A DNA stretch of 64,000 nucleotides from Cyanobacteria bacterium P01_A01_bin.123 (GCA_039815185.1 JBCBZT010000005.1:64001-128000), one strand, 5' to 3'; shown: positions 1,112 through 17,699, counted from the stretch's first letter. A program made the numbers and translations. Notes: generated from the sequence alone by a model not told the origin.

Positions 1112-3973
1112 TTAAATAATGGCCCCTTGTCTAGCCAGTATGCGCTTTTCCACTTCAGAGAGCCCTTGTACCTGCTTGAGATTGAGCCCGGCATAAAAGG
1201 GTTGGTCGGTTTCAGCAGTTGTGATGGGCAAACTGGTGAATTTGCGTAACGGTTTACCACTCAGGGTTTCCCAAAGGGTTATGCCAAACCGAGTCCGGGT
1301 TAGCAGAACCTGCCCATCCCCACTAAAAACCAAGACAGAGGCAGACTGTTCAAATCCTGAAAGCGTTTGTAATGGGGCTTGACCCGGTTGGCTTAAATCC
1401 CAAATTTGAACCGTCCTGTTCTGGCCGCTGCTAGCCAAGAAGCGCCCGTTAGGACTGAAGGCAACGGTTACCACGTAGTCGCCATCGTCGCCTGTGTGGG
1501 ATAACACGCGAGAATCGGCTGGGGTCTGATCAAGACTCTCAATATGAATGCTGCGGTCATTGTACTCAGCCCATAAAACCCGTTCACGGGCGAGACAAAG
1601 GGTGGCTCGAATGGTGTAGTAAGCAGTCGAATGAATGGTTTGAATTGGGCGATCGCGGTCAATGTCCCAGATGAATGTCTTGCTATCGTCCCCACAGCTA
1701 ATCAAGTAGCGTGCTTCTAAATCGGCAGGGCTAAAGGTGAGGTGATGAACGCTGTCGCTGTGGGCACTGAAGACTTGCTTCGGTAGCCCAGTGGCACACT
1801 CCCAGATGACAATGGCACCATCTTGTCGGCCCGCAGCCAGGTAAACCCCATCGGGGCTAACTTGTAGGCAGGTGACGGGGCTGGGGTGATCCATTTCAAA
1901 GGGCATGGGATCAGATGAGCGCAACACATCCCAATAAAACTGAACCTGCCCCTGATCGTTGGCTACGACTAAAGCCCCTGAGTCTGGACAAAAGGCTAAT
2001 GCCTTAACGGGGTGACCATCGCCCGATAAAAAATTGATCAGCGCTAGCCGCTGCTGGGGCGCATATTGCCACACCCACACCCCACCCGTGGCATCACCAA
2101 TGGCCAATGTGCTGCCATCAGCGCTAATCGCGCCACAGATATCACCCCGTAGTCCAGGGGTAAAGATAATATCTTCCAACTGGGCTCGGGCGAAGTTCAC
2201 GCTGCGCACCAAGTTCCGGCGTAAATCAGCTTGGGCAATGTGCAACTCCGTTAACTCCCAATCACGGAGGTCTAGGTTGAGCGCGATCGCCAGGTTAATC
2301 AAGTTGCCTGCCGCATAGCTCCGCTGTTGGGGGTGTTGTCTCAGGTCCTCCAGTAGGGCTTCGAGGGCTTGTTTAAGCACACCTAGATCAGTGCCAATCT
2401 GATATCGTACGGCCCGCACAATTGCCTGCACGATTAGCTTGTTATGGGTTTGACGGGCCTGTTCAGCTGCCGTTGCCAACAAGATGGGATGACTATGGAG
2501 TAATTGAGGACGGCAGTCGAGCACCTCTTGAGAGACAATTGTGGCCAATCGTTCCAAAATCAACGGTCGCAACAGGGGCGGGGTGGGATAAATCAGTGAT
2601 GATGCCGGGTCTTCAATAATCAGATGGCGGCAGGTTAGCGATCGCAATACCCAACCGATAGAAATATTTTGTTCAGTGGTCTTTAACCGCTCCCGCAGCT
2701 TTTGACGGGGTTGAGGAGATAACGCTAACCAATACAAAACGGCTTGCTCGGCTACCAGCAGATCCCGGAAGGGGGACAAGAGCCGATCACTCAATCTCGT
2801 CAGGCTTTCAAGGTTTTCAGGTTTGAGCAGATGCTCTATGTTGCCATTGTGAAAGCGCTGAATTTCATTGACTGTGCCTTGTAGAAGTTCTGGATTGCCT
2901 GCACAAAGCGTGACTAATTCTTGACGGGTTTGGGGTGCCCCTTCTAAGTCAGGGAGGGTTGCCAACCATTGCAGCGCATCGGTTTCTGAAAACCCTGAAA
3001 TGGTCGCTTCAAAATACCGATTATCTGTACCCAATAAATTAGGTCTGACACGGCTAACCCAAATCACACAGCTCCGGTGATAACGCTCTGTCAACGCATC
3101 AAGTAATAGGGGGTAGCCCTGCTTTTCGCGATCGCGTTCACCAGTCCTTAGGGTCAGCACGTCCAGCGGCACGTCGAGTTCTTCAGCTTGATCCAAAACA
3201 ATCAAATACCGTTCTTGCCCCAACTGCCTAATCAATTGATCGACTAAGGCTGGTTCATTCGGCAAGTGTGTTGAGTCAATCGGCACTTGTAGAAACGCCA
3301 TAAACTCTCGATAGAGGTCAGCGACTGTTGCAACTCGATTAGCTCTGCGATAGAACACAGGGCGATCTGCCGGGATATCTCGCAATAGCTTTCCGAGTAA
3401 CCAGGTTTTACCCGAACCGCTGGGGCCATTGAGCACAACTAGCCGATGGTGATTAGCCGTCAAAATCGGTTGCAGTTCTACCAACTCTTGAGTTCGACCG
3501 TAGAAGGCCGGATTGTCGCAGGTGAGTTCTTGAATGTCTCTTTTGGGAGGCGATGGCGTTGCCAAAGGCTGGCTTTCAACGATGGGATTAACCCGCAGCG
3601 TTGACGTCGAAAAAGATGGTTGGCTATTAATCTCGGGGGAGGACCTTGACAATGGCTGTGACTTCTCAAACATCAAAGTCTCAACCGTGCTGCGAAAGGT
3701 ATATTTCGTTAAGCGTTGTTGATTCCAAGCCTTTTTGAGTGATTTCCAAAGCTTTGGTGCGGCATCCCTTTGGAGGGTACCTGGTGAGTAGCTACACTCC
3801 TCAGGACAAAAACCAGGAACATCGTCGTATCTCAAGTCTTTCCAAGCGGCTAACAAGACACAGCGCTCAGTCCGTTTTAGCCCCCTGCCTTCATGCTGTT
3901 GCAGCGTTTCAGCGACATACCGTAGAACGGATTGAAACTCCTCGTTGTCCATAATCTCACGTATCTGACGCAT
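1112..3973 (-). CDS. STAND NTPase (NB-ARC/NACHT-like) with N-terminal HTH-like domain and C-terminal WD40 repeats
   Basis: Walker A GPSGSGKT, Walker B LIVLDQAE, GNP motif, SYAAGNLINL followed by a pentapeptide-like stretch, and WD repeats (VAFSPNGRFLASSGQNRTVQIWD). The N-terminal 'VLLAAW..Y...LWKSL...TK.TFR' pattern is typical of cyanobacterial HTH-STAND-WD40 proteins. Confidence 0.9.
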   Translation of the reverse strand: MRQIREIMDNEEFQSVLRYVAETLQQHEGRGLKRTERCVLLAAWKDLRYDDVPGFCPEECSYSPGTLQRDAAPKLWKSLKKAWNQQRLTKYTFRSTVETLMFEKSQPLSRSSPEINSQPSFSTSTLRVNPIVESQPLATPSPPKRDIQELTCDNPAFYGRTQELVELQPILTANHHRLVVLNGPSGSGKTWLLGKLLRDIPADRPVFYRRANRVATVADLYREFMAFLQVPIDSTHLPNEPALVDQLIRQLGQERYLIVLDQAEELDVPLDVLTLRTGERDREKQGYPLLLDALTERYHRSCVIWVSRVRPNLLGTDNRYFEATISGFSETDALQWLATLPDLEGAPQTRQELVTLCAGNPELLQGTVNEIQRFHNGNIEHLLKPENLESLTRLSDRLLSPFRDLLVAEQAVLYWLALSPQPRQKLRERLKTTEQNISIGWVLRSLTCRHLIIEDPASSLIYPTPPLLRPLILERLATIVSQEVLDCRPQLLHSHPILLATAAEQARQTHNKLIVQAIVRAVRYQIGTDLGVLKQALEALLEDLRQHPQQRSYAAGNLINLAIALNLDLRDWELTELHIAQADLRRNLVRSVNFARAQLEDIIFTPGLRGDICGAISADGSTLAIGDATGGVWVWQYAPQQRLALINFLSGDGHPVKALAFCPDSGALVVANDQGQVQFYWDVLRSSDPMPFEMDHPSPVTCLQVSPDGVYLAAGRQDGAIVIWECATGLPKQVFSAHSDSVHHLTFSPADLEARYLISCGDDSKTFIWDIDRDRPIQTIHSTAYYTIRATLCLARERVLWAEYNDRSIHIESLDQTPADSRVLSHTGDDGDYVVTVAFSPNGRFLASSGQNRTVQIWDLSQPGQAPLQTLSGFEQSASVLVFSGDGQVLLTRTRFGITLWETLSGKPLRKFTSLPITTAETDQPFYAGLNLKQVQGLSEVEKRILARQGAII

Positions 3974-3980
3974 ACAGACT

Positions 3981-4296
3981 CTGACCTAGTAAAGAGTCTA
4001 ACGTGAAGTCACTGACTTTTGCTGACTTTTGAACAACTAACCTCTGCCCAAAACCGATTTTCACCGTCTTCACAACTGACTTTTTGTTAGGAGGTCAGTT
4101 ATTTTATCTGAGGACTTACTGACTCTATGCCCTGATCTCCTTCATGGAGTCATACATTTCCCTGCTTTACTTCTAAAAGAGCAGGGCTCCCTTTTACGCC
4201 TGTTATAAGTATTTTCCCTCAATTTTCTTAACTCTCTACTAACTTTCACTGACCTTTTTGATAACTTTCACTGACCTTTTTGTTGACTTTCACTGA
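3981..4296. promoter_or_regulatory. Cluster of CTGAC(T/C)TT motifs, including a 22-bp tandem repeat, upstream of the STAND-WD40 gene
   Basis: CTGAC at 3981, 4012, 4022, 4076, 4119, 4249 and 4271, with variants at 4239, 4283 and 4293. AACTTTCACTGACCTTTTTG(A/T)T occurs at 4241-4262 and 4263-4284, plus a partial third copy. Confidence 0.55.
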
Positions 4297-4382
4297 TGAC
4301 GTTTAATGCTGGCAAATGTAGGATGTTAAATGATAGAGGGTTATATTATGGATCTAGAACGTAAACTTCTAATAGTTTATGC

Positions 4383-4424
4383 ATGCAATCAAGGAACATA
4401 TAAATGCAATCAAGGAACATATAA
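4383..4424. repeat. Perfect 21-bp tandem duplication ATGCAATCAAGGAACATATAA x2
   Basis: Read directly at 4383-4403 and 4404-4424. Confidence 0.95.
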
Positions 4425-4557
4425 GTTCTGATTGGGCAAGAATGTATAGCCCGCAAGCGCTTTTGGCTAAAGGTAGAATCTTGTTTTTTGTAAGGTTCTT
4501 TCTTGATTTGCATTTTACGGAAAGTTGCAGCCACTATTATGTTGTCTTTGAAGTAGA

Positions 4558-4917
4558 ATGATGGCTATTCTCTCTGGTAAGGATAATTTGAACAGTGTTG
4601 ATTACAGTGGCCTTGTTAAGGCTATTGTCACGCTAAATTTAAGAGAGCAACCTTCGTTGTATTTGGACACTGTTAAGCCTACCGATTTTTCTTCCCGATA
4701 CGCTTACAGACAGGCTCTTATTGATAAGCAAAACTTTTATACTGGTGAGTTGATTCAAAAAGTTAGGAAAGAATTGCAGAATATCGTTCCAAAAGTTTTC
4801 GGCGGTTCTTCAAGTTCAGTGTTTGTTATAGAGGGAACCATATCGCAAGTGGCGCAAGTAGAAGCGCTAGAAAGCGTAAAGCGAGTAGTGCTGGATGCAC
4901 CAATCCAGATGCATTGA
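4558..4917 (+). CDS. Small stand-alone protein homologous to the N-terminal domain of the neighbouring NACHT protein; putative subtilase-prodomain/I9-inhibitor-like
   Basis: KPTDFSSRYAYRQALIDKQ...GGSSSSVFVIEGTISQV...L..VKRVVLDAPI aligns by eye with NACHT DPKNYKSRKAYREAAISRQ...GGQTSNVVTARGTVEQF...LPGIIKGKLDEDI. Confidence 0.75.
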   Translation: MMAILSGKDNLNSVDYSGLVKAIVTLNLREQPSLYLDTVKPTDFSSRYAYRQALIDKQNFYTGELIQKVRKELQNIVPKVFGGSSSSVFVIEGTISQVAQVEALESVKRVVLDAPIQMH

Positions 4918-5294
4918 ATAGTTCAATAAAGAAGTGCTTACCTTCCGCAATGTTGATTTTCCTTGCTAATTAGGAGGACTTCAGATTGTCTACGGGAAAC
5001 TGAATCTTATATCTACGGCGTACTAAGAGGCAGTTAGGGCATTATCCAAATCACTAGTTCATAGTTCATCTTTGATAGGAGTTTTTGCCTCAGTGTCCCT
5101 GGTCTCTTAGAGAGCGATAAGTGTCTGAATCGCTTATACGGCAGGCACCTTGAGTGATTTCGGTAAAACCTCTGGAAGCGCTTACTCCTTAATGCTTTAT
5201 GACTCCTGTCATCCGTTAGCAGATCAGTTGCCAACTCAGAATATCCTAAATGACTTTTTGCGATAGTATATGCTTTTTTGAGCAGATGGTGTGA

Positions 5295-6212
5295 TCATCC
5301 GTACGAGCTGATGCCAAAAGCGATGTAGTTGTATGGAATAAGCTGATCCCGACCGTAGTCTTTAACAATTTGTCCAGTGGTCGCGTCGTAGACCCAGTCT
5401 TTCCAATCCCAAGCGCGCTTCAAAGCCTCGGGAATCTGGACAGCGACATAAACGCCTTGAGCAAGTTGAGCCCCCATTGGGTTATTCCCAAAATCTAAGC
5501 CAATCTGGATATCCTGGACAGCAACATTTTTACGGCGCTTTGCAATTGACTTGGTCAAACCAACAGCCATCTCCGACAAAGGTCTTATAGCTGGTTGAAC
5601 GGTGGTAGCGAGCTGCAACCCTGCTTTGAATGCATCGGATTCGAGAAACTTAATGGCTTGCTCATCTTCTTCATTTTTTACATTGACGGTAAAGCATTTG
5701 AGAATTAGGCCGTCGTTGCCGATATTTATACCGAGAAATATTGGATAGTTTAAGATAGCTGCGCGTTCTCCCTCACGTACTCGATATGTACTGTTGAAAT
5801 GCAAATGCTCCGTGGCTTCGGGAAGAACATTCTGAGCATAAAAATCAAAAAGAATTTGATGGGTTCCACTACCTGGGTAAGACGCAACTCTCAATGCGTT
5901 AAGTGTGACTTTGATCTGGCGACCTTTTAAGGATAAGTCAGATGAAACATTGCTGGCAGAGCTAATAGGTATATCTCGGTTGTCAGCAATATCTGGAGGG
6001 ATATAACCGAACGTATAGGCTGTGTGTTGCCAAAGTCTGTTCTGAAAAGGCCAGGGCCTGCCTAAGCTCAATATTGTTACTTTTTCATCAGTAACTTCTT
6101 CTAGCGCCTCTGCTGAAACTTCGTCGCCCATCTCATATAACTTCGTTGCTGCCTGCTCAGGAGACATATTAGCAATTACGCATAAATCATCAAACCATTG
6201 ACTCGAAATCAT
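5295..6212 (-). CDS. Hypothetical protein (305 aa), last co-oriented gene of the S8-NACHT run
   Basis: Long clean ORF with an acidic N-terminus, beta-rich core and an amphipathic helical pair (AGLQLATTVQPAIRPLSEMAVGLTKSIA). No catalytic motif recognised. Confidence 0.8.
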   Translation of the reverse strand: MISSQWFDDLCVIANMSPEQAATKLYEMGDEVSAEALEEVTDEKVTILSLGRPWPFQNRLWQHTAYTFGYIPPDIADNRDIPISSASNVSSDLSLKGRQIKVTLNALRVASYPGSGTHQILFDFYAQNVLPEATEHLHFNSTYRVREGERAAILNYPIFLGINIGNDGLILKCFTVNVKNEEDEQAIKFLESDAFKAGLQLATTVQPAIRPLSEMAVGLTKSIAKRRKNVAVQDIQIGLDFGNNPMGAQLAQGVYVAVQIPEALKRAWDWKDWVYDATTGQIVKDYGRDQLIPYNYIAFGISSYG

Positions 6213-6213
6213 T

Positions 6214-6249
6214 GATTTTATTTTAAGAAACGATTTTATTTTAAGAAAC
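6214..6249. repeat. Perfect 18-bp tandem duplication GATTTTATTTTAAGAAAC x2 immediately upstream of the 305-aa gene start
   Basis: Read directly at 6214-6231 and 6232-6249. Confidence 0.95.
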
Positions 6250-6357
6250 GTTTGAAGGTATTTTATACGGATAGATAGATTCTGTACTCAATTTTCAATC
6301 TACTTCTACGTGTGGTTGCGCTTTGTAATTTTTAGAACACGGCATATCTATTTTAAG

Positions 6358-9051
6358 CTAGCAAACTGTTATCATTTTAGCTCTAACTTCTTCAACAATC
6401 TTAGTTGAGACACGAGAAGCGGCTTTAATACATAGCGACAAGATGTAGTTAGCATAAAAATACTGCTCTATATGTACTGATTCCTCTAAGCTGATTGATG
6501 TAATGTGTTTTGGCAAGTCAAAAAGTTCAATGCAAATTTGCTTCAATGAGTTAGAGGCCATATCAATATATTCAACGAGATGCCTTCTTCTCAATGTCTT
6601 TTCGGATTCAGATACTGGTCTTTGGCTGCTAGGCAAAGTGATGGTCAAATTCTCCAAACCAGGTAAAATATCGTGAAGTTTAGCTTCTCTAAATATAGAA
6701 ATGTGAGTTGATCTTTGAACTTGCTCCTTGGACATGTGATGTATACTCTGCATAGCATTTTTGATCTTTTGATTGCGATGCTGACGCAACTCTTTCTGTA
6801 AGGTTTTGGTTCTATCCAAAGCTAAGCTAAGCGTTCTTTCAATCTCCGATATGCGTGACAAGTGTAGTTTATTGTTGCTTATTCCATCTCTTGCAATTTC
6901 GCTAACAGTTACAAGCAAATCAACGATACTTCTCAAAATCACAAAATCACTAGAAAGTTCTGTTTCATAAGGGAATCTTGCTTCGTATGGCCAATGTTGT
7001 GACCAATAGATTGACGAGTTAATATTCTTTTTTAAATCTTGATTTTTCTCTTCTACTACCAAATAATCTAATGCACATTTCAATAAAAAAGTACGTTCTT
7101 TAAGCCCCGCATAATTCTCTCTACTATGATGGCTACATTTCTCTGATGCCCAAGAAAGAAGACTTGTTAACTTGTCAATCTTAGCTAAGGTCTTTGTTTC
7201 ATCGAGAATGCACCGGATCATCTCATCTGCTCCTGGATTGAATAGCATGAGTCCAGAAACAAGAGGAAACACTGAACGCCAGCGTTTGTTGGTTAGACTA
7301 TCTTTAACTAACTTTTTGAATCCATATGATTCATGCACGAATTTTGCAACTAAGTACTCTTGAAAGGTTAAATGAGAAAATAAATAAATAACTTCCCCTG
7401 ATTCCGTGGAATGTTCTACCAAGATGCCTTGAGTTGTTGTCAATTCCTTCAAAACAGAGTTGCTTGTTAAGTTCAGAGGTGAGTTTCTGTTGCTATCTAT
7501 AAACTCTTGTATTTGGCCATTGAGTGAATTTTTTGTTGCAAAAAGGTGGTTGGATTTAAAGCTTTCAAATGCTATTTCTGCTAAGAGTGTCTCTTCCATA
7601 TGCAGCTCAAGCTTCTTAAAAATTCCTTGTGATTTAGCCGATTTCTCCGCTGGCCATTCCTTTAGGAGGATATGTAGTGCTTGCTTATAGAGAAAAACTC
7701 TGTTTTCGGGGAAATCACGATAGTAATCGTAGATTAAACAGAGATATGTTAGAAACAAGGGTGTCCTTGACAGTTCCCTTGCATTAGCATTCTCGGGCCT
7801 TTGCAAAAGGTTGAAGCAGTTGTCGGCTGTTTTTTCTGAGATATGCTCCTCGGAGTTGAACCATTTTCTAATAAATTTTAAAACCTTTTTATTGTCGAAA
7901 TCAACGATTCTAGCTTTGCTAAAATTATCAATGCATTCTATGTTTTCAACTGCCTGATAAGCTGCGGCCCTGCATGAAATGATTATCCTATTGTGCATGT
8001 AATTTTCGACAAGTTGTCTGATATTATCCTTTACAACTTGCAAATTTGATTCGGAAACTTCATCCAATCCGTCTAGTATGATTATTAATTTTCCAAGCCT
8101 AAGTGCAGCACTAGAAAATTCAAGGGCACAACGAATACCAACTGCTCTAAATTCTTTTGCAATAACTCTGACGATATCTGGTGTATCATTGGAGAGTTTT
8201 TTCAAGTCGAGGAAGAGTGGTACGCTATAGCTATTGTTCTCGTTCAACTTTCTGATGGAGCCTAAAGCAATCATCTTCAGAAAAATGGACTTCCCAGAAC
8301 CAGCATCCCCAAAGATAATCATGTGCTTATTTTCTTTGAAGAAGGAGAAGGCAGAAGTGCTTTCTCCTTCTCCTCGTGGCATTGGCATTCTGTTCAAAAA
8401 TGTATGCGATAATTTCTTGACAGAAGACTTTTGGAGAAAGTTGCCGACGTCGCACACTTCAATATCTGTATAAACGGAGCTTAGAGGTCTTGCGTCAGAC
8501 ATGCCTAAAACGCTTAGGCTTCCATACCTGCTCTCATATGACTCAACGAATTTTTTCGCGCCTCCATGGATAATCTGTTCATCCTCATTCAACCCCTGAA
8601 ATTCTAATAACTCTTGTATGAGATTGCTTAGCCTATCTATTACTTTATGTTGATGAGTTTGATCAATAATTATATCTTCATCAAGTTTGCCTTTGATGAT
8701 GCCAGGTAACGTCAAAACTTTTCTAAATTGTTCAACGGTTCCGCGTGCAGTAACAACATTGCTAGTTTGTCCACCTGCAAGCTCAATTGAAAACTCTTTG
8801 ATCTTATCTTTTGTTTTGCCAATGCTATGGTTAATCAACTCAGTTTGTCTAGAAATCGCAGCTTCTCGATATGCTTTTCTAGACTTGTAATTCTTAGGAT
8901 CTATACTGTCTTTATACTGAACTTCCTGGCTTATATTCCCTGTGTCAAGATGCAGAATAAGTGTCAAAAACCGATTTTTTTTGTCTTGCAAGAGGATTTC
9001 TTTGAGTTCATCATCCACTTTAGAAAGAATTGCCTTACTTATCTTTTGCAT
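6358..9051 (-). CDS. NACHT-family STAND NTPase (bacterial NLR-related) with N-terminal prodomain-like module and C-terminal helical domain
   Basis: Walker A GDAGSGKS, Walker B IIILDGLDE, IIISCR, TPLFL, winged-helix FSHLTFQEYLVA. The C-terminal YFYANYILSLC...VS pattern resembles the NCH2-type helical domain of cyanobacterial NACHTs. Confidence 0.92.
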   Translation of the reverse strand: MQKISKAILSKVDDELKEILLQDKKNRFLTLILHLDTGNISQEVQYKDSIDPKNYKSRKAYREAAISRQTELINHSIGKTKDKIKEFSIELAGGQTSNVVTARGTVEQFRKVLTLPGIIKGKLDEDIIIDQTHQHKVIDRLSNLIQELLEFQGLNEDEQIIHGGAKKFVESYESRYGSLSVLGMSDARPLSSVYTDIEVCDVGNFLQKSSVKKLSHTFLNRMPMPRGEGESTSAFSFFKENKHMIIFGDAGSGKSIFLKMIALGSIRKLNENNSYSVPLFLDLKKLSNDTPDIVRVIAKEFRAVGIRCALEFSSAALRLGKLIIILDGLDEVSESNLQVVKDNIRQLVENYMHNRIIISCRAAAYQAVENIECIDNFSKARIVDFDNKKVLKFIRKWFNSEEHISEKTADNCFNLLQRPENANARELSRTPLFLTYLCLIYDYYRDFPENRVFLYKQALHILLKEWPAEKSAKSQGIFKKLELHMEETLLAEIAFESFKSNHLFATKNSLNGQIQEFIDSNRNSPLNLTSNSVLKELTTTQGILVEHSTESGEVIYLFSHLTFQEYLVAKFVHESYGFKKLVKDSLTNKRWRSVFPLVSGLMLFNPGADEMIRCILDETKTLAKIDKLTSLLSWASEKCSHHSRENYAGLKERTFLLKCALDYLVVEEKNQDLKKNINSSIYWSQHWPYEARFPYETELSSDFVILRSIVDLLVTVSEIARDGISNNKLHLSRISEIERTLSLALDRTKTLQKELRQHRNQKIKNAMQSIHHMSKEQVQRSTHISIFREAKLHDILPGLENLTITLPSSQRPVSESEKTLRRRHLVEYIDMASNSLKQICIELFDLPKHITSISLEESVHIEQYFYANYILSLCIKAASRVSTKIVEEVRAKMITVC

Positions 9052-9054
9052 AAC

Positions 9055-10296
9055 TCACCATGCTTGAACTAGTCCGGAACCTTGTCGTGCCTGATTGTCA
9101 AGAGATTTGCATCTCGAACAAAGCATTTCTTTTAGTTCGTCTAGTTGCAATTGAGGGTTTTCCCCTAATATCAAGGCTGCTATACCGGAAACAATAGCCG
9201 TTGCCATAGATGTTCCCGTCTCGGCTTCATAATTTCCATTTGGAACACAAGAGAAGATTTCAAAGCCAGGAGCAACCAAGGAAGGGATTTCACATCTTCC
9301 GTGATTATCTAAAGTGTACGTGCCGCCGCCGCTGAACCCAGCTACTTTATTTTTTTTGTCGGTTGCACCCACAGAAAGAACTTCAGGATAGATTGCAGGA
9401 CTCTTAATAGTACTTGCACCATCATTTCCTACTGCAGAGACTAAAAGAACACCGGATGCTGCGACGCTCGCTACTATATCTTCCAGCGCCCCGCCATCGT
9501 CCTCAATTTCGATGCCTGCTGATACATTGACGATGCTGACTTCTGGTTTCGTACAAACGTGGTCTAATGCTCGAATCAGTCGCACTAGAGATCCCTTACC
9601 CCTAGGAAGCACAACGCAACTTAGTAACGAAGCATTTTTAGCGATACCAGTTTTACTACCGCAGATTAATCCCGCAATATGTGTGCCATGTTTATGAGTA
9701 TCTCTGGAGTATTTTTGTCGATTGAAATTTAGGCTCTCACCATCAAACTCATACGCTGATATGGTTGTATTGCGAAAGTCTTCATGCCTTGAGTCTATAC
9801 CAGTATCAATGACCGCCACTGTAACATCAGCGCCGAATTGACTGTTTCTATGAAGCCTCAATGTGTCATAGCCAATCTCTCTGAGATGCCATAAATGACT
9901 CTCATCGACTTGTTCTGTATATCGTGGATTTCTGGTCTTTAGCGAGTTAGGGTATATTGCCGCTGACTCTGGAGATATTAGCCTTATAGGCTGGTCGCGG
10001 ACAATTTTCAGCCCCGTTAAATCTTTTTGGATTTTTTCAACTTCGTCTTCTGGTAAGTCGAGGATACTGGCACCAGTAACGCTTGGATCCATTGGGCCTT
10101 TTATTACTTCTAATCTATGCTCTTGCTTAGCTTCCGAAAGCCACGCCTGCAATTCCACCTGATGTGGTTCTTCGCGATTTAGCTGAATAATACGCTCTAC
10201 CTGCTTTCGTCTACTAGTTGGATCCAGTCCAATTGAATCAAAGCTAAGGGGATGGACAGATGAAGCTTCTTCAGGACGAACAATATATATTGCCAC
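9055..10296 (-). CDS. S8 family serine peptidase (subtilase), no signal peptide
   Basis: Complete triad VAVIDTG / HGTHIAG / GTSMA and oxyanion AVGND. The ~110-aa prodomain ends IVRDQPIRL. GTG start; the stop lies 3 nt before the NACHT ATG. Confidence 0.95.
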   Translation of the reverse strand: MAIYIVRPEEASSVHPLSFDSIGLDPTSRRKQVERIIQLNREEPHQVELQAWLSEAKQEHRLEVIKGPMDPSVTGASILDLPEDEVEKIQKDLTGLKIVRDQPIRLISPESAAIYPNSLKTRNPRYTEQVDESHLWHLREIGYDTLRLHRNSQFGADVTVAVIDTGIDSRHEDFRNTTISAYEFDGESLNFNRQKYSRDTHKHGTHIAGLICGSKTGIAKNASLLSCVVLPRGKGSLVRLIRALDHVCTKPEVSIVNVSAGIEIEDDGGALEDIVASVAASGVLLVSAVGNDGASTIKSPAIYPEVLSVGATDKKNKVAGFSGGGTYTLDNHGRCEIPSLVAPGFEIFSCVPNGNYEAETGTSMATAIVSGIAALILGENPQLQLDELKEMLCSRCKSLDNQARQGSGLVQAW

Positions 10297-10301
10297 GGTA
10301 G

Positions 10302-10347
10302 ATCAGAGAGATAATATACTACAAATCAGAGAGATAACATACTACAA
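10302..10347. repeat. 23-bp tandem duplication ATCAGAGAGATAA(T/C)ATACTACAA x2 just upstream of the S8 start
   Basis: Read directly at 10302-10324 and 10325-10347, one mismatch. Confidence 0.9.
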
Positions 10348-10542
10348 ATCAATATATTGAGATGCATGCCTTTGTCTAGTCCAGTAGATACCTATACATG
10401 CTTTGCGCCAAAAGCATACGCATACCTCTTTACCTGAAAAGATCGAAGACAACCCACAATCTATGAGTTTCCCATATAGTACAGATACTATTTTCAACTT
10501 ACAAGGATATATATTTCAATACATCGTAGAGAACTTTGATTA

Positions 10543-15092: not shown

Positions 15093-17699
15093 TTAATTGA
15101 TCTGGGGAGGCTGAGGTTTGAGCTGGCGTAGGCTCAAGGCTGACTCTAGGAAGCCCTTCATTTCTTGAGCATGGGGATAGTTAGGGAAAATGGTTAACAG
15201 ATCTTGTAAATCTTGGATGGCTCCTTTGAGAAAAAGGACAGGCGCTTCTCGAGAAAGAGCTTCTTGATAAAAGTGCTTTCCTTTGTCGAGCTTACGCGAG
15301 ACTAAATGATAAAGAGCCAGATTAAATGTATGGCGATGATTATTGGGGACTTTCTCATGATTTTTCTGAGCAATTTGAATGGCTTGAGTTAAATGGGCTT
15401 TGGTGCTTTCTATCTGTTTTAGACCTAGATAAGCTAGGGCTTGTCTGTAGTAGTCCCAATCATTGTTTGTATCCATTGAGGCTTTGAAGTCTAGAAGCGC
15501 TTCATCATATTGGCGTAATAGCAAATAGACCTCGCCGCGATTTGCAGCTGCCCGTTTATACTCAGCATCCAACTCAATAGCTCGATTAAAATCTTGTAGA
15601 GCTTCTTTATAAGACTTTATAGAGTGATAAGTTCGACCACGTCCTGTGATCGCCCACTTATCCTCAGGATCTAGTTCAATGGCACGGTTAAAGTCTTCCA
15701 ATGCCTCCTCGTAGGATTCTAAAAATCGATAGATTGAACCACGTTGTGCAATCGCCCACTTATATTCAGGATCTAGTTCAATAGCACAATTGAGGTCTGT
15801 CAGTGCTTCCTCATAGCGCTCCATAAAACGATAGGTTATACCACGATGTGCGATCGCCCACTTATCTTCAGAATTCAATTCAATAGCTCGACTGAAGTCT
15901 GTCAGTGCTTCCTCATAACGCTCCATAAAACGATAGGTTATACCACGATGTGCGATCGCCCACTGATACTCAGGTTCAAGTCCAACGGCACAATTAAAAT
16001 CTTGAAGTGCTTTTTCATGCGCTGACATTAGCCGATAAACGTTACCCCGCCAAGAATAAATGATTGAATATTTCTCCGCTTTAACAACCTCTGCATTCAA
16101 AAGATCGGTCAACACTGTTACCGTTTCTCCATAGCCATCATCTTCATAAGCTTGAAGCCCCTTCATCAGACGCTTACCCCAATCACATAAGGCTTTAACC
16201 TCGAGCTCTTGACCTGCTTGCAACATCACAGCAGCCCACTGCTGGGCAAAGTCGCTATTTTGTTTCAGCGCATCTAGAAACTGATTGAGTGCAACGGCAA
16301 GTTTCTGTTGGGGGTGACTACATAGCTGATGATATAGCCGTCGCAGCGCATAGCTTTGCCAAGTCGCATCGGCATAGCGAACCTTATCATCCTCTAAATC
16401 AAGCTGTTGAGCGCAGCCGTCATAATACGCCGCCAACACCCCATGCTTCTCAGCCCAACTTTTCGCAGACTCGCGCTGCTGATAACGCAACATCTGAGGC
16501 CGCACCACATCGTGATATGCCCAACCATCACTACGCTCACCTACAAAGGGCATGGTTTTGAGCCAGCCATACAAAGCATCAACATCGGTCTCCTCATCTA
16601 CTAGCTGAGCAACCACATCCCGATTCAAGCTTTGAGGTAAGGCCGCATCCAAAGCCAACTGCCGTTTGGCCGGATCCTCTACCCACTTCAGGAAGCGCTC
16701 CACTGCCGTACCGCTCGCTTCCCCCACCTGCACCGGATCATTTGGCGAACTCTCTGCCAAAATCGCCAGCAGCAAGGGCAACCGCCCCGACACATCCAAA
16801 ATCGTGCTGATCACCTCTGCATTGGTTACCCCTTTACGCTGCAAAAACTGAGTTGCCTCTTCTGCCGTAAACGGTTCCAAGGGAAACTGCACTGGGTCAT
16901 ATCCCGACCAATCATTGGGATTCAAGCGATCGCGTCCGGCAATCACCCAGATGCAGTTGGGCGGCAAAACGCCATGGCGTTCTGCCAAAATATCTAGCAG
17001 CCAGGGCTCGACCACCTCACCCGTGCGCTCATAGGTGTCAAACAGCAACACCATTTGCCGATCGGCAATGGTTTCTAGCCCTTCTAAAAACAGCGGAGTC
17101 AAGACACCAAGTGGTTCATTCACCAATTGAATCTCATCTTTATTCTTCAGCTTTCGGCTGACAAACGTTGCCCATTCCCCAGCCCCCTCCACCAAGCCCT
17201 CTTCATCGACAAAATCCAGGGCGGCACCCGCAATCGGCACTTGCCGTCCTAACTTTAGCCCAACCTTTGTGACCGTTTTGCCCACAAAGGCAGAAAATCC
17301 CTGGGGAGCCTCTGGATCGGTTTCTAACTCCTCACGCTTGTGGCGATAAACCTTATAGCGCTCACTAAACTTGGCTAGCGGCTGTCCCTGATCTGCCAGC
17401 TGTTTGGCAAATGCAGCCATGACCTCTGGCACGGTGGTAATTGCCTCATCAATTCGCGCCACGACATGCTGATGCCCTTTAGCAATTGCTTCAAACTGGC
17501 GTAGCAGGGTTGTTTTACCCACGCCGCCCTGTCCCCAAATATTGAAGAGAAATGCACCGGGATAGGCAAAGCCATCCACTATTTGCAAATGGGTCAGGTT
17601 GTGTTGAAACGTTTCCAACTGCTCAACCCGACCGACAAAGGCCGAACGCTGCTGAGCACGAATCAGATCTTGGCGGCTAGGACGCTTTTTGGGGGGCAT
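15093..17699 (-). CDS. STAND-type ATPase with C-terminal TPR repeats
   Basis: FVGR, Walker A GQGGVGKTT, Walker B LLFDTYE, GRLPL, and about 7 34-aa TPR units (WAIAHRGITYRFMERYEEALTDF.RAIEL). Confidence 0.9.
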   Translation of the reverse strand: MPPKKRPSRQDLIRAQQRSAFVGRVEQLETFQHNLTHLQIVDGFAYPGAFLFNIWGQGGVGKTTLLRQFEAIAKGHQHVVARIDEAITTVPEVMAAFAKQLADQGQPLAKFSERYKVYRHKREELETDPEAPQGFSAFVGKTVTKVGLKLGRQVPIAGAALDFVDEEGLVEGAGEWATFVSRKLKNKDEIQLVNEPLGVLTPLFLEGLETIADRQMVLLFDTYERTGEVVEPWLLDILAERHGVLPPNCIWVIAGRDRLNPNDWSGYDPVQFPLEPFTAEEATQFLQRKGVTNAEVISTILDVSGRLPLLLAILAESSPNDPVQVGEASGTAVERFLKWVEDPAKRQLALDAALPQSLNRDVVAQLVDEETDVDALYGWLKTMPFVGERSDGWAYHDVVRPQMLRYQQRESAKSWAEKHGVLAAYYDGCAQQLDLEDDKVRYADATWQSYALRRLYHQLCSHPQQKLAVALNQFLDALKQNSDFAQQWAAVMLQAGQELEVKALCDWGKRLMKGLQAYEDDGYGETVTVLTDLLNAEVVKAEKYSIIYSWRGNVYRLMSAHEKALQDFNCAVGLEPEYQWAIAHRGITYRFMERYEEALTDFSRAIELNSEDKWAIAHRGITYRFMERYEEALTDLNCAIELDPEYKWAIAQRGSIYRFLESYEEALEDFNRAIELDPEDKWAITGRGRTYHSIKSYKEALQDFNRAIELDAEYKRAAANRGEVYLLLRQYDEALLDFKASMDTNNDWDYYRQALAYLGLKQIESTKAHLTQAIQIAQKNHEKVPNNHRHTFNLALYHLVSRKLDKGKHFYQEALSREAPVLFLKGAIQDLQDLLTIFPNYPHAQEMKGFLESALSLRQLKPQPPQIN

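Follow-up and report, generated by a model that had tools for sequence, protein, structure and literature searches.

A cyanobacterial locus pairing an S8 peptidase with a NACHT NTPase: subtilase-prodomain-like domains and a candidate C2-like effector

The locus and its S8 and NACHT proteins

The window analyzed is a stretch of 64,000 nucleotides from Cyanobacteria bacterium P01_A01_bin.123 (GCA_039815185.1, JBCBZT010000005.1:64001-128000). An original prediction, made from the DNA alone, had proposed within it an NLR-protease conflict system of four genes, and all four open reading frames proved to be intact (Table 1). They encode an S8 peptidase, a NACHT NTPase, a protein of 305 residues and a protein of 119 residues. 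The NACHT ATG lies 3 nt past the S8 stop codon, a spacing for which prediction and coordinates agree. The 305-aa gene is co-oriented with these two genes and is separated from the NACHT gene by 145 nt, and the 119-aa gene is convergent to the other three.

Table 1. Coordinates of genes, domains and candidate regulatory elements, counted from the first nucleotide of the window
Feature	Position	Strand	Description
S8 peptidase (P0001)	9055-10296	-	413 aa; Pfam Peptidase_S8; predicted cytoplasmic, triad intact
Putative N-terminal prodomain of the S8 peptidase	9946..10296	-	approximately residues 1-117; limits inferred
NACHT NTPase (P0002)	6358-9051	-	897 aa; prodomain-like domain at the N-terminus, then NACHT and a helical C-terminal part containing NCH2
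Subtilase-prodomain-like N-terminal domain of the NACHT protein	8647..9051	-	approximately residues 1-135; BLASTP with the 119-aa protein
305-aa protein (P0003)	5295-6212	-	helical hairpin, flexible linker and C2-like β-sandwich with helical insert (model)
119-aa stand-alone subtilase-prodomain-like protein (P0004)	4558-4917	+	AF2 model and fold search
Tandem 2 x 23 nt repeat	10302..10347	.	just upstream of the S8 start; possible operator
Promoter-like site	10378-10351	-	accompanies the 2 x 23 nt repeat upstream of S8
Exact tandem 2 x 18 nt repeat	6214..6249	.	immediately precedes the 305-aa gene, within the 145 nt that separate it from NACHT
Promoter-like site	6244-6215	-	ahead of the 305-aa gene

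The genes occupy an AT-rich island free of HIP1 sites, as had been noted from the DNA. The HIP1 site (GCGATCGC) occurs 66 times in the window and 0 times between 3128 and 11304, compared to ~6.7 occurrences expected per 6.5 kb. The GC content is 0.397 (39.7%) at 4001-10500 and 0.486 (48.6%) in the remainder of the window. This low-GC, HIP1-free stretch indicates that the four-gene locus was most likely acquired horizontally. DNA of the locus is present in sequencing runs of one marine-metagenome study, and no RNA run is listed for it.

The S8 peptidase matches Pfam Peptidase_S8 (PF00082) with an E-value of 8e-46 (157 bits, cut-off 21.8), and the PADLOC 'subtilase' model with an E-value of 4e-27. 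It contains the motifs of Asp164, His203, the oxyanion Asn291 and Ser363, and these residues are invariant across 25 homologues. The D/H/S order of the triad, the oxyanion Asn and the PF00082 match above cut-off together identify the protein as a member of the Peptidase S8 family. Its N-terminus is free of hydrophobic stretches, and the highest-scoring Kyte-Doolittle window (19 residues) falls at residue 271, within the catalytic core. An S8 peptidase with an intact triad and without a signal peptide was therefore correctly recognized. The N-terminal region is kept in 10/10 related cassettes with 26-32% identity over ~147 aa, and the peptidase appears, from its sequence, to retain a prodomain of its own besides the prodomain-like copies found elsewhere at the locus.

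The NACHT protein matches Pfam NACHT (PF05729) at residues 244-400 (E 7e-13, 49.3 bits, cut-off 26.7) and NCH2 at residues 800-894 (E 8e-7, 29.5 bits, cut-off 27). With a Walker A motif at 248-255 and a Walker B motif at 326-331, it is a NACHT STAND NTPase. Pfam identifies NACHT and NCH2 only, with neither a repeat domain nor an enzymatic domain, consistent with the proposal that this NACHT protein carries no enzymatic effector.

A prodomain-like domain shared by the NACHT and 119-aa proteins

The 119-aa protein is homologous to residues 46-127 of the NACHT protein, with 30% identity over 82 aa (BLASTP, E 2e-11). The two therefore contain one shared domain, as originally suggested. A search of our library with this domain gave 42 matches, which include 12 N-termini of NACHT-NCH2 proteins, 25 stand-alone proteins and a fusion to a TIR domain (P0155).

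The AF2 model of the 119-aa protein (pLDDT 85) has a β-α-β-β-α-β order. In a fold search of 48,161 chains, S8 propeptides occupy ranks 1-4 with Z scores of 7.2-7.9, which are middling values, and the ferredoxin-like fold is a common one. The best matches are propeptides within inhibitory complexes and, judged by title, 13 of the best 50 rows belong to I9 inhibitors or to propeptides of subtilases or kexins. A structure search of the Atlas gave S8 or I9 clusters in 7/10 rows. Its feature scores, which serve as leads only, were 0.94 for PopD (173 shared features), 0.92 for Inhibitor_I9 and 0.89 for the CspB prodomain. No PDB entry matched the model in Foldseek at E≤0.001, and neither the 119-aa protein nor the NACHT N-terminus matches Inhibitor_I9 (PF05922) in Pfam at E≤1. 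By BLASTP, the 119-aa protein showed no meaningful similarity to the S8 peptidase, the S8 N-terminus included. Profile alignment of the two families by hhalign gave a single match, which is weak (probability 11.9%, E 0.0025) and falls on S8 residues 27-117, in the putative prodomain of the peptidase itself. Additionally, the motif L-D-x-P-I-x-L-[IV]-x-P ends the S8 prodomain consensus as well as many members of the 119-aa family.

Modeling of the S8 peptidase with a partner, suggested by the original prediction, was carried out for S8 residues 118-413 and the 119-aa protein. The complex scored 0.89, compared to 0.64 for the best of 3 controls, the one in which the 119-aa partner was kept and the S8 peptidase was replaced by an unrelated protein. 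The mark for this score is reached by 116/157 solved complexes and by 2/215 mismatched pairs; the score obtained here may reflect memory of solved propeptide-subtilisin complexes. The model runs share at least 95% of contacts, with a pLDDT of 81 for the 119-aa partner. In the modeled interface, partner residues 113-119 meet Asp164, His203, residues 290-291 (Asn291 among them) and residues 361-363 of the S8 peptidase, such that the C-terminal tail of the 119-aa protein is placed inside the active-site cleft. The description of the shared domain as prodomain-like is supported by its top fold matches and by this predicted placement. Based on the model, we propose that the 119-aa protein may act in trans as an inhibitor or buffer of the S8 peptidase.

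The distribution of the domain can also be read differently. Its occurrence at NACHT N-termini, alone and fused to TIR is of the kind described for effector-associated domains (PMC7159879), and CARD-only decoys have been described in gasdermin systems (PMC10312443). The ~110-aa domain could then be an adaptor of the CARD/EAD type, binding like with like, by which NACHT recruits the S8 peptidase through the S8 prodomain, and TIR elsewhere, and the free 119-aa protein would be a decoy that blocks recruitment. The TIR fusion likewise fits a plain adaptor role. However, the complex model, which outscored its controls, places the 119-aa tail in the S8 cleft, the fold search is headed by propeptides bound as inhibitors, and the 119-aa protein resembles the S8 N-terminus not at all by BLASTP and weakly by profile. 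We therefore consider an adaptor role unlikely as the whole explanation, although it is compatible with active-site inhibition, and the inhibitor reading is the one developed below.

Two conserved modules and the 305-aa family

The 119-aa-type domain is present in 10/400 other cyanobacterial genomes. In 10/10 of these genomes, the NACHT gene bearing the domain is immediately preceded by an S8 gene or its remnant (8 intact, 2 decayed), and the called S8 and NACHT ORFs of all 8 intact pairs overlap or lie within ~200 nt of each other. In every related cassette, the NACHT protein begins with the ~110-aa domain that also makes up the stand-alone 119-aa protein. No 305-aa gene and no stand-alone 119-aa gene lies within ~17 kb of any of the 8 intact cassettes, and these two genes are therefore dispensable to the S8-NACHT core pair. 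Of the recurrence that the original prediction suggested looking for, the S8-NACHT pair is conserved, but its association with the 305-aa and 119-aa genes is not seen in these cassettes.

The 305-aa protein has no match at E≤1 in Pfam (C2 included), PADLOC or NCBIfam, and contains no hydrophobic segment. Its family is nevertheless large, with at least 768 homologue clusters and ~55% identity across phyla, spanning many bacterial phyla and a few archaeal records. The AF2 model (pLDDT 71, pTM 0.73) has a conserved N-terminal helical hairpin, followed by a flexible linker and a C2-like part (residues ~92-305), a β-sandwich with a ~45-residue helical insert. In an exhaustive search with VIA-align, ~47 of the best 50 rows are C2-bearing chains by their titles; the best C2 match has a Z score of 8.5, which is middling, and an rmsd of 2.7 over 106 residues. 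At E≤0.001, Foldseek retrieved no PDB structure. No gasdermin was identified by Pfam or PADLOC at E≤1, or among the best 50 rows of either fold search with the 305-aa model.

With neighbors checked by Pfam, a protease gene is found within 5 kb in 54/90 loci of the 305-aa family (46 CHAT, 7 C14, 1 S8). When only loci with at least 3 kb of flank on both sides are considered, a protease is present in 38/50 and absent from 12/50. The most common partner is a CHAT-STAND-TPR protein rather than an S8 peptidase, with some C14 caspases. Among 75 loci with a 305-aa homologue, tblastn with pieces of the S8, NACHT and 119-aa proteins identified a single S8 gene, in locus L055, and nothing for NACHT or the 119-aa protein, and the four-gene set is therefore not the common form of the family. 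Scanning of metagenome contigs with the 305-aa protein gave 16 loci; by tblastn, 10 of these have a CHAT-type match (one duplicates locus L013) and 0/16 an S8 match. A scan of viral contigs with the 305-aa alignment gave no relative. In a quick tree, the copy from the window falls inside a cyanobacterial clade with a support of 100; all other members of this clade with a known neighbor are CHAT-linked. One relative adjoins a type I restriction enzyme. The 305-aa proteins thus form a protease-associated gene family, compatible with the substrate or effector role assigned to the 305-aa protein in the original prediction. From the model, we propose that it may be a membrane effector activated by proteolysis.

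The complete layout appears to be rare. Homologues of the S8 (64% identity), NACHT (55%), 305-aa (73%) and 119-aa (57%) proteins are each recorded on a Logan/ENA contig of 7,438 nt. That this is a single contig is inferred from equal nucleotide sizes and sources, and it appears to carry all four genes; no other locus that was read has the four together. The proposed four-gene layout is present in this genome, but it is a rare composite, found here and on the one inferred metagenome contig, and not a widespread unit, and members of the 305-aa family usually accompany CHAT-STAND-TPR proteins. Two modules, each conserved in other genomes, are thus combined at the locus, the S8-NACHT cassette and a protease-associated 305-aa gene.

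This composite nature bears on whether the 305-aa protein belongs to the system. The S8 peptidase could itself be the terminal effector, acting by broad or host-factor proteolysis after NACHT fires, with the 305-aa gene independent or tied to another protease. The 8 intact cassettes that lack a 305-aa gene would fit such a role, as would the 145-nt gap and promoter-like site ahead of this gene; protease defence without a dedicated effector has also been reported (PMC12642450). On the other hand, the family stands beside proteases of three classes in 38/50 assessable loci, the source genome has a single 305-aa copy, located directly after its protease-NLR pair, and the same four proteins appear to occur together on the 7,438-nt contig. 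We consider it quite unlikely that the S8 peptidase acts alone, and retain the 305-aa protein as the candidate effector.

Proposed mechanism and comparison with known systems

Gene content, homologies, conserved linkages, fold likenesses and a complex model that passes its score mark form the basis for reading the locus as an NLR-type conflict module, most likely for phage defence by abortive infection, in which a sensor, a prodomain-tethered protease, a cleavable membrane effector and an inhibitor buffer would act together. We assign this reading a probability of roughly 0.5. By analogy, the locus resembles a bacterial inflammasome. The S8 peptidase, bearing its own prodomain, would be a zymogen in the cytoplasm. 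The paralogous prodomain-like domain at the N-terminus of NACHT would dock on the S8 catalytic domain in the manner of a propeptide, with its tail in the active-site cleft, and would thereby hold the protease at the sensor in a silent state. The 305-aa protein, whose family accompanies proteases of three classes, would be the latent effector. A trigger sensed by the C-terminal helical region of NACHT would lead to NTP-dependent oligomerization that gathers S8 molecules, and the clustered peptidases would degrade the inhibitory prodomains in trans. Freed S8 peptidase would then cleave the flexible linker of the 305-aa protein (residues ~43-60), releasing the C2-like domain, which, with its helical insert, may attach to the membrane and damage it. 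Stray S8 peptidase would be soaked up by the free 119-aa protein, which would thereby set the firing threshold.

A broader version of this proposal is more tentative, and we would put it at somewhat less than even odds. Prodomain mimicry may be the means of wiring an NLR to its protease: the sensor would carry a copy of the inhibitory propeptide of the protease, such that recruitment and inhibition become a single contact, with the free copy setting the threshold and the same domain tagging TIR and other proteins for the protease; the 305-aa protein, in turn, may found an unnamed family of C2-like effectors unleashed by CHAT, C14 or S8 proteases, a non-gasdermin executioner in the place of gasdermin.

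A role outside phage defence was also considered. The locus could be a circuit for development, kin discrimination or stress death in a filamentous or colonial cyanobacterium, or control a held-back protease as PopD controls PopC. PopD of Myxococcus xanthus is a small protein that binds the subtilisin-like PopC, which lacks a signal peptide, and is degraded on starvation (PMC6434023). The role proposed for the 119-aa protein is similar, in that a separate small protein would hold a cytoplasmic subtilisin-like protease until degraded, and the Atlas sets the 119-aa protein near the PopD cluster. Systems of this general kind are also described as enriched in multicellular bacteria (PMC7159879). 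However, the likeness to PopD (PF27478) is a lead from a language-model feature score. The low-GC island without HIP1 sites, the patchy phyletic spread of the 305-aa family at its ~55% identity and the relative beside a restriction enzyme fit mobile defence genes. We thus regard a non-defence function as very unlikely, and favor the conflict module.

Two parts of this module are without a description that we could find in the literature, the putative propeptide-derived coupling domain and the candidate C2-like effector family; titles and abstracts gave no account of the 305-aa family or of the S8-NACHT pair, and supplements of bioRxiv preprints may list such loci. Coupling through a propeptide-derived domain, if true, would account at once for the retention of a dangerous cytoplasmic subtilase at a sensor and for its silencing. 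The 305-aa family is large, highly conserved and C2-like by its model, and it travels with three unrelated classes of protease in many phyla. As the family is widespread, mostly beside CHAT-STAND-TPR proteins, a result obtained here would annotate hundreds of loci.

Consistent with the original prediction, the locus matches no named system in the Pfam, PADLOC and NCBIfam models or in the Pfam scans for CATRA, CATASP and Trypco. IetAS consists of the ATPase IetA and the S8 peptidase IetS. It resembles the locus in its pairing of an S8 peptidase and a P-loop ATPase, there in defence and here in a putative defence setting. The S8 peptidase is not IetS, with 28.2 bits against a cut-off of 900 for NCBIfam IteS and a PADLOC IetS match (E 9e-10) confined to the generic catalytic core; nor is the locus IetAS, as it has no IetA gene and the partner is a NACHT STAND NTPase. 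In bNACHT/Avs proteins, as in the NACHT protein of the locus, a NACHT module is located between an N-terminal domain, there an output domain, and a C-terminal region, there a sensor and here a putative one (bioRxiv 10.1101/2022.07.19.500537). The N-terminal peptidases named in that preprint are of caspase, trypsin, transglutaminase-like and SMT4 types, and the words 'subtilase' and 'subtilisin' have 0 occurrences in its text. The NACHT protein is also distinct from EruA (48 bits, NCBIfam cut-off 1000).

In its model, the 119-aa protein resembles subtilase propeptides and I9 inhibitors in the β-α-β-β-α-β order and in the C-terminal tail, which is predicted to lie in the S8 cleft. Unlike I9 inhibitors, the domain at the locus lacks an Inhibitor_I9 match, is fused to a NACHT NTPase and is duplicated as a free gene.

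The protease-effector modules of Evans et al. 2025 include MBL, α/β-hydrolase, Pepco, EACC1 and other effectors, which are gated by proteolysis and occur with interchangeable proteases and sensors; a clade of the MBL effectors is linked to S8 peptidases (PMC12642450). The modules described there resemble the locus, as proposed here, in having a latent effector beside a sensor and a protease of swappable class. By Pfam models only, the 305-aa protein matches none of CATRA-N, CATRA-C, CATASP, Trypco1 and Trypco2. The CATRA/CATASP families PF20269, PF20270 and PF20271 have no match in three genomes carrying the 305-aa gene, and none for P0003 or P0004. Pepco, a protein of ~117 aa that occurs in cyanobacteria, is a β-barrel (PMC12642450). 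The 119-aa protein is ferredoxin-like in its model, has no Trypco1 or Trypco2 match and is thus not Pepco. The source genome contains 5 Trypco1 matches, all on other contigs, and no Trypco2 match.

To our knowledge, bacterial NLR-protease-executioner systems have so far involved CARD-type adaptors and gasdermin, nuclease or small pore-forming effectors. In type II bacterial gasdermin systems, an NLR-like ATPase is found with a CARD-protease and a gasdermin or other effector (bioRxiv 10.1101/2021.06.07.447441; PMC10312443). As described, these systems share with the proposed module an NTPase sensor, a protease that is recruited and a latent effector from a gene of its own, and the 305-aa family holds the place of gasdermin, next to proteases of CHAT or C14 type that carry STAND and TPR modules. 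In contrast to gasdermin systems, the candidate effector is C2-like without a gasdermin match, the putative coupling domain is prodomain-like rather than a CARD, and the protease is an S8 peptidase.

Genes and genomic setting of the island

All four ORFs of the original prediction are intact, at the coordinates it had reported (see table). The S8 peptidase retains Asp164, His203, the oxyanion Asn291 and Ser363, each unchanged across 25 aligned homologues. No hydrophobic N-terminus was found in its sequence and it is therefore a cytoplasmic enzyme, as had been proposed. The NACHT start codon lies 3 nt past the S8 stop codon, confirming the spacing. The NACHT protein contains Walker A (residues 248–255) and Walker B (residues 326–331) motifs, and Pfam searches found no repeat domain or enzymatic domain in it, consistent with the suggestion that it carries no obvious enzymatic effector. 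The 305-aa and 119-aa proteins have no match in Pfam, PADLOC or NCBIfam at E≤1.

Features of the island and its neighborhood (window coordinates)
Feature	Coordinates	Strand	Description
S8 peptidase	9055–10296	minus	413 aa; Pfam Peptidase_S8, E 8e-46
NACHT NTPase	6358–9051	minus	897 aa; Pfam NACHT 244–400, NCH2 helical domain 800–894
305-aa ORF	5295–6212	minus	145-nt gap after NACHT
119-aa ORF	4558–4917	plus	convergent with 305-aa ORF
60-aa ORF	4379–4561	plus	end overlaps 119-aa gene start by 4 nt; no Pfam match
NACHT-WD40 gene	1112–3973	minus	953 aa; STAND-type, directly beside island
AAA_16-TPR gene	15093–17699	minus	868 aa; STAND-type, near island
Tandem repeat	4227–4296		3 x 22 nt
Tandem repeat	4378–4419		2 x 21 nt
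Tandem repeat	6214–6249		2 x 18 nt, exact
Tandem repeat	10302–10347		2 x 23 nt

The description of the locus as an AT-rich, HIP1-free island also holds: none of the 66 HIP1 sites in the window lies between 3128 and 11304, and the GC content of the island is 0.397 versus 0.486 elsewhere in the window. The island DNA is foreign to the genome (an 8.1-Mb assembly) and is flanked by ordinary cyanobacterial genes encoding a NACHT-WD40 protein, a DUF2062 protein and MnmE. The sequencing runs containing this DNA belong to one marine-metagenome study. Two STAND-type genes lie close by, and the one directly beside the island looks native since HIP1 sites are present in it. A short tandem repeat is located immediately 5' of every transcription unit of the island, and these repeats may be operators. 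The 60-aa ORF starts inside one of them (2 x 21 nt) and, thus, may not be a real gene.

The 119-aa domain and the S8–NACHT cassette

The 119-aa protein aligns with NACHT residues 46–127 (BLASTP, 30% identity, E 2e-11), and by this sequence criterion the two are the same domain. Searched exhaustively with HMMER, 1.84 billion representatives yielded 42 relatives, comprising 25 stand-alone proteins of 95–151 aa, 12 domains that head NACHT proteins (mostly also with NCH2 by Pfam), one TIR fusion and four other or doubtful cases. The TIR fusion (P0155, 296 aa, on a 419-kb contig) matches Pfam TIR_2 (E 9e-15) and a ThsB-like PADLOC model (E 1e-18). A domain shared in this way could be a homotypic adaptor, a rival to the propeptide-like role favored by the following comparisons.

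The AlphaFold model of the 119-aa protein (27-row alignment, pLDDT 85) has the order β-α-β-β-α-β. Foldseek returned no match to it at E≤0.001. VIA-align, run exhaustively against 48,161 chains, placed subtilase propeptides at ranks 1–4, namely pro-subtilisin E (Z 7.9, rmsd 1.9 over 62 residues), the subtilisin BPN' prodomain (Z 7.9), a Tk-subtilisin-type propeptide (Z 7.5) and the cucumisin propeptide (Z 7.2), matches that are weak on their own, given the moderate Z-scores and a fold that occurs widely. Judged from titles, 13 of the best 50 rows are subtilase/kexin propeptides or I9 inhibitors. S8 or I9 clusters account for seven of the ten rows listed in an Atlas structure search, and the Atlas feature search gave PopD (0.94), Inhibitor_I9 (0.92) and the CspB prodomain (0.89). 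The sole hhalign match between the 119-aa and S8 families places residues 45–119 on S8 residues 27–117, the N-terminal domain of S8 itself, with a probability of only 11.9% (E 0.0025). In the consensus lines of both families, the domain closes with the motif L-D-x-P-I-x-L-[IV]-x-P. Thus, the domain shared by the 119-aa protein and NACHT looks like a subtilase propeptide, as judged from these models and alignments.

The original prediction proposed complex modeling of S8 with its partners. The S8 catalytic domain (residues 118–413) with the 119-aa protein scored 0.89 compared to 0.64 for the best of three controls, although the score may reflect likeness rather than binding by this copy, since propeptide–subtilisin complexes have been solved. 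Among solved complexes, 116 of 157 attain the mark concerned, as do 2 of 215 mismatched pairs. One of the controls had an unusually high score. Three runs agreed in at least 95% of contacts, with a pLDDT of 81 for the 119-aa partner. In the modeled interface, residues 113–119 of the 119-aa protein would occupy the S8 cleft, which includes D164, H203, N290–291 and residues 361–363.

Among 400 further genomes of the phylum, 10 have a match to a profile of the 119-aa domain. Within the ∼17 kb examined around each match, the domain invariably heads a NACHT ORF, and immediately upstream of this ORF is an S8 gene or what remains of one. Of the ten pairs, eight are intact (S8 of 400–454 aa, NACHT of 789–834 aa), their ORFs as called overlapping or at most ∼200 nt apart, and two (L089 and L097) are decayed. 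Compared to the window's proteins, identity is 39–46% for the catalytic part of S8, 26–32% for its N-terminal domain and 35–37% for the NACHT core. Neither a 305-aa homologue nor a second, free copy of the 119-aa domain was found in any of these ten regions. Therefore, the core unit is the S8–NACHT pair, and the co-occurrence expected from the original prediction extends, in these genomes, to this pair but not to the other two genes. In genomes with plain cassettes the protease is the only enzyme, in keeping with a rival reading of S8 as the sole effector.

The best non-self matches of all four proteins, P0167 for S8 (64% identity), P0286 for NACHT (55%, full length), P0007 for the 305-aa protein (73%) and P0124 for the 119-aa protein (57%), are each recorded on exactly one 7,438-nt contig, from the same two sources (Logan and ENA). 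Their summed coding length of ∼5.2 kb fits such a contig, which leads us to infer that the complete locus exists in a second, well-diverged copy. The longest contig is 4,772 for both P0011 (305-aa homologue, 70% identity, Logan) and P0170 (S8 homologue, 40% identity, ENA), which may mark a third S8-linked locus, or chance. In the window's locus, two modules that are conserved separately form a rare composite.

The 305-aa protein and its protease neighbors

The second module is a large, unnamed, protease-linked family. A word-indexed search retrieved 768 clusters, with identity of ∼55% across Cyanobacteriota, Chloroflexota, Pseudomonadota, Planctomycetota, Acidobacteriota, Bacteroidota, Myxococcota and others, and a few archaeal records. 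We assembled 90 loci (75 from species genomes plus 16 metagenomic loci, less one duplicate) and searched them by tblastn with a panel of CHAT, C14 and S8 domains drawn from the same loci. A protease lies within 5 kb of the homologue in 54 (46 CHAT, 7 C14 caspase and 1 S8); many of the other 36, without a match, are short contigs. Of the 50 loci whose flanks extend 3 kb or more in both directions, 38 have a protease and the remaining 12 lack one. The dominant form by Pfam (35 loci) is a ∼1,100–1,300-aa protein combining CHAT protease, AAA_16-type STAND and TPR, encoded directly upstream on the same strand. A C14 caspase gene lies 6 to 170 nt downstream in Sorangium and in two loci from metagenomes, and in L055 (Thermoanaerobaculia) the homologue is followed by a 561-aa S8 protein.

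The window's copy groups with P0007 (SH-aLRT 88) in a quick maximum-likelihood tree, inside a cyanobacterial clade (support 100) in which every other member whose neighbor is known is CHAT-linked; L055 is far away. These neighbors and the tree together indicate that the family switched protease class several times, and that the S8–NACHT cassette captured its 305-aa gene from a CHAT-linked cyanobacterial ancestor.

Several other loci vary the arrangement. In a Phycisphaeraceae locus (L020:6373–14562), CHAT-STAND-TPR genes (∼1,200 aa) lie on both sides of the 305-aa gene. Distant homologues (38–39% identity) at L112:6118–12077 and L113:9992–12145 precede a C14 caspase, with a type I restriction enzyme gene upstream in L112. 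In an Acidobacteriota MAG (L064:6015–10927), where no protease was found, the homologue follows two Hsp70-like genes, one with TPR, recalling the DnaK-like fusions of EACC1 modules described in PMC12642450.

The predicted structure of the 305-aa protein (pLDDT 71, pTM 0.73) consists of two N-terminal helices (18–39), a low-confidence linker (43–52 below pLDDT 50) and a β-sandwich with three inserted helices (181–225). The best Foldseek rows are C2 domains (E ∼0.01), and about 47 of the best 50 rows of the exhaustive search, judged from titles, are C2-bearing chains, covering residues 92–305, among them the C2 domains of Vps34 (Z 8.5, rmsd 2.7 over 106 residues), cPLA2 (Z 7.8) and perforin (Z 7.4). 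C2 domains are membrane-binding modules. No hydrophobic segment was found in the protein. The N-terminal hairpin contains residues invariant in the family, and the linker that joins the hairpin to the first core motif is variable, both in length and in sequence. It is in this linker that S8-linked copies diverge most from 70%-identical CHAT-linked relatives, as could be expected of a protease-specific cleavage site or, equally, of a little-constrained stretch.

Proposed mechanism and comparison with known systems

From the observed parts, homologies and linkages, we infer how the system would work throughout. S8 would be synthesized as a zymogen carrying its own prodomain, and the N-terminal domain of NACHT, a putative prodomain paralogue, would bind the S8 catalytic domain, retaining it at the sensor in an inactive state; a fixed complex of this kind agrees with how tightly the two genes are coupled. 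On sensing a trigger through its C-terminal helical region, NACHT would undergo NTP-dependent oligomerization and cluster the proteases, and these in turn would strip away the inhibitory domains in trans. In subtilisin maturation, propeptide release and degradation is the rate-limiting, self-accelerating step. The freed S8 would itself be the effector in the eight plain cassettes, and at the window's locus would also cut the 305-aa linker, so that the C2-like domain is released and can target the membrane. S8 that leaks would be captured by the free 119-aa protein, setting the threshold, with parallels in PopD, which holds PopC (PMC6434023), and in CARD-only proteins, which damp CARD systems (PMC10312443). 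The inflammasome-like reading of the original prediction is supported in architecture and logic but not in scope, the locus being a composite; a role outside defence would be a rival to it.

No named system with this four-gene layout emerged from PADLOC or NCBIfam, as originally suggested: neither the 305-aa nor the 119-aa protein is matched, and scores for the IetS and EruA models fall far short of the cut-offs. Gasdermin, MBL and hydrolase profiles (Pfam, PADLOC) do not match the 305-aa protein. The survey by Evans et al. (PMC12642450) names ten effector families, three of which are covered by the five Pfam models tested. CATRA-N, CATRA-C, CATASP and Trypco2 gave no match, and Trypco1 (Pepco) matched only on contigs other than that of the locus. 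The window's genome has five Trypco1 genes above the Pfam cut-off (contigs C130, C35, C120, C39 and C99; L115–L119) and is, therefore, rich in protease-effector modules. The N-terminal domains of bNACHT proteins include caspase, trypsin and other peptidases in the bNACHT preprint (bioRxiv 10.1101/2022.07.19.500537), whose text does not mention subtilases. In the titles and abstracts of papers retrieved by full-text searches, we found no description of an S8–NACHT pair with a prodomain-like adaptor, or of the 305-aa family, though an earlier mention of either may exist.

The logic of the locus is that of bacterial gasdermin systems and of the protease-effector modules in the survey by Evans et al. 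(PMC12642450). Two of its putative parts, prodomain mimicry linking an NLR to its protease and a C2-like, protease-linked effector family, may themselves be new.
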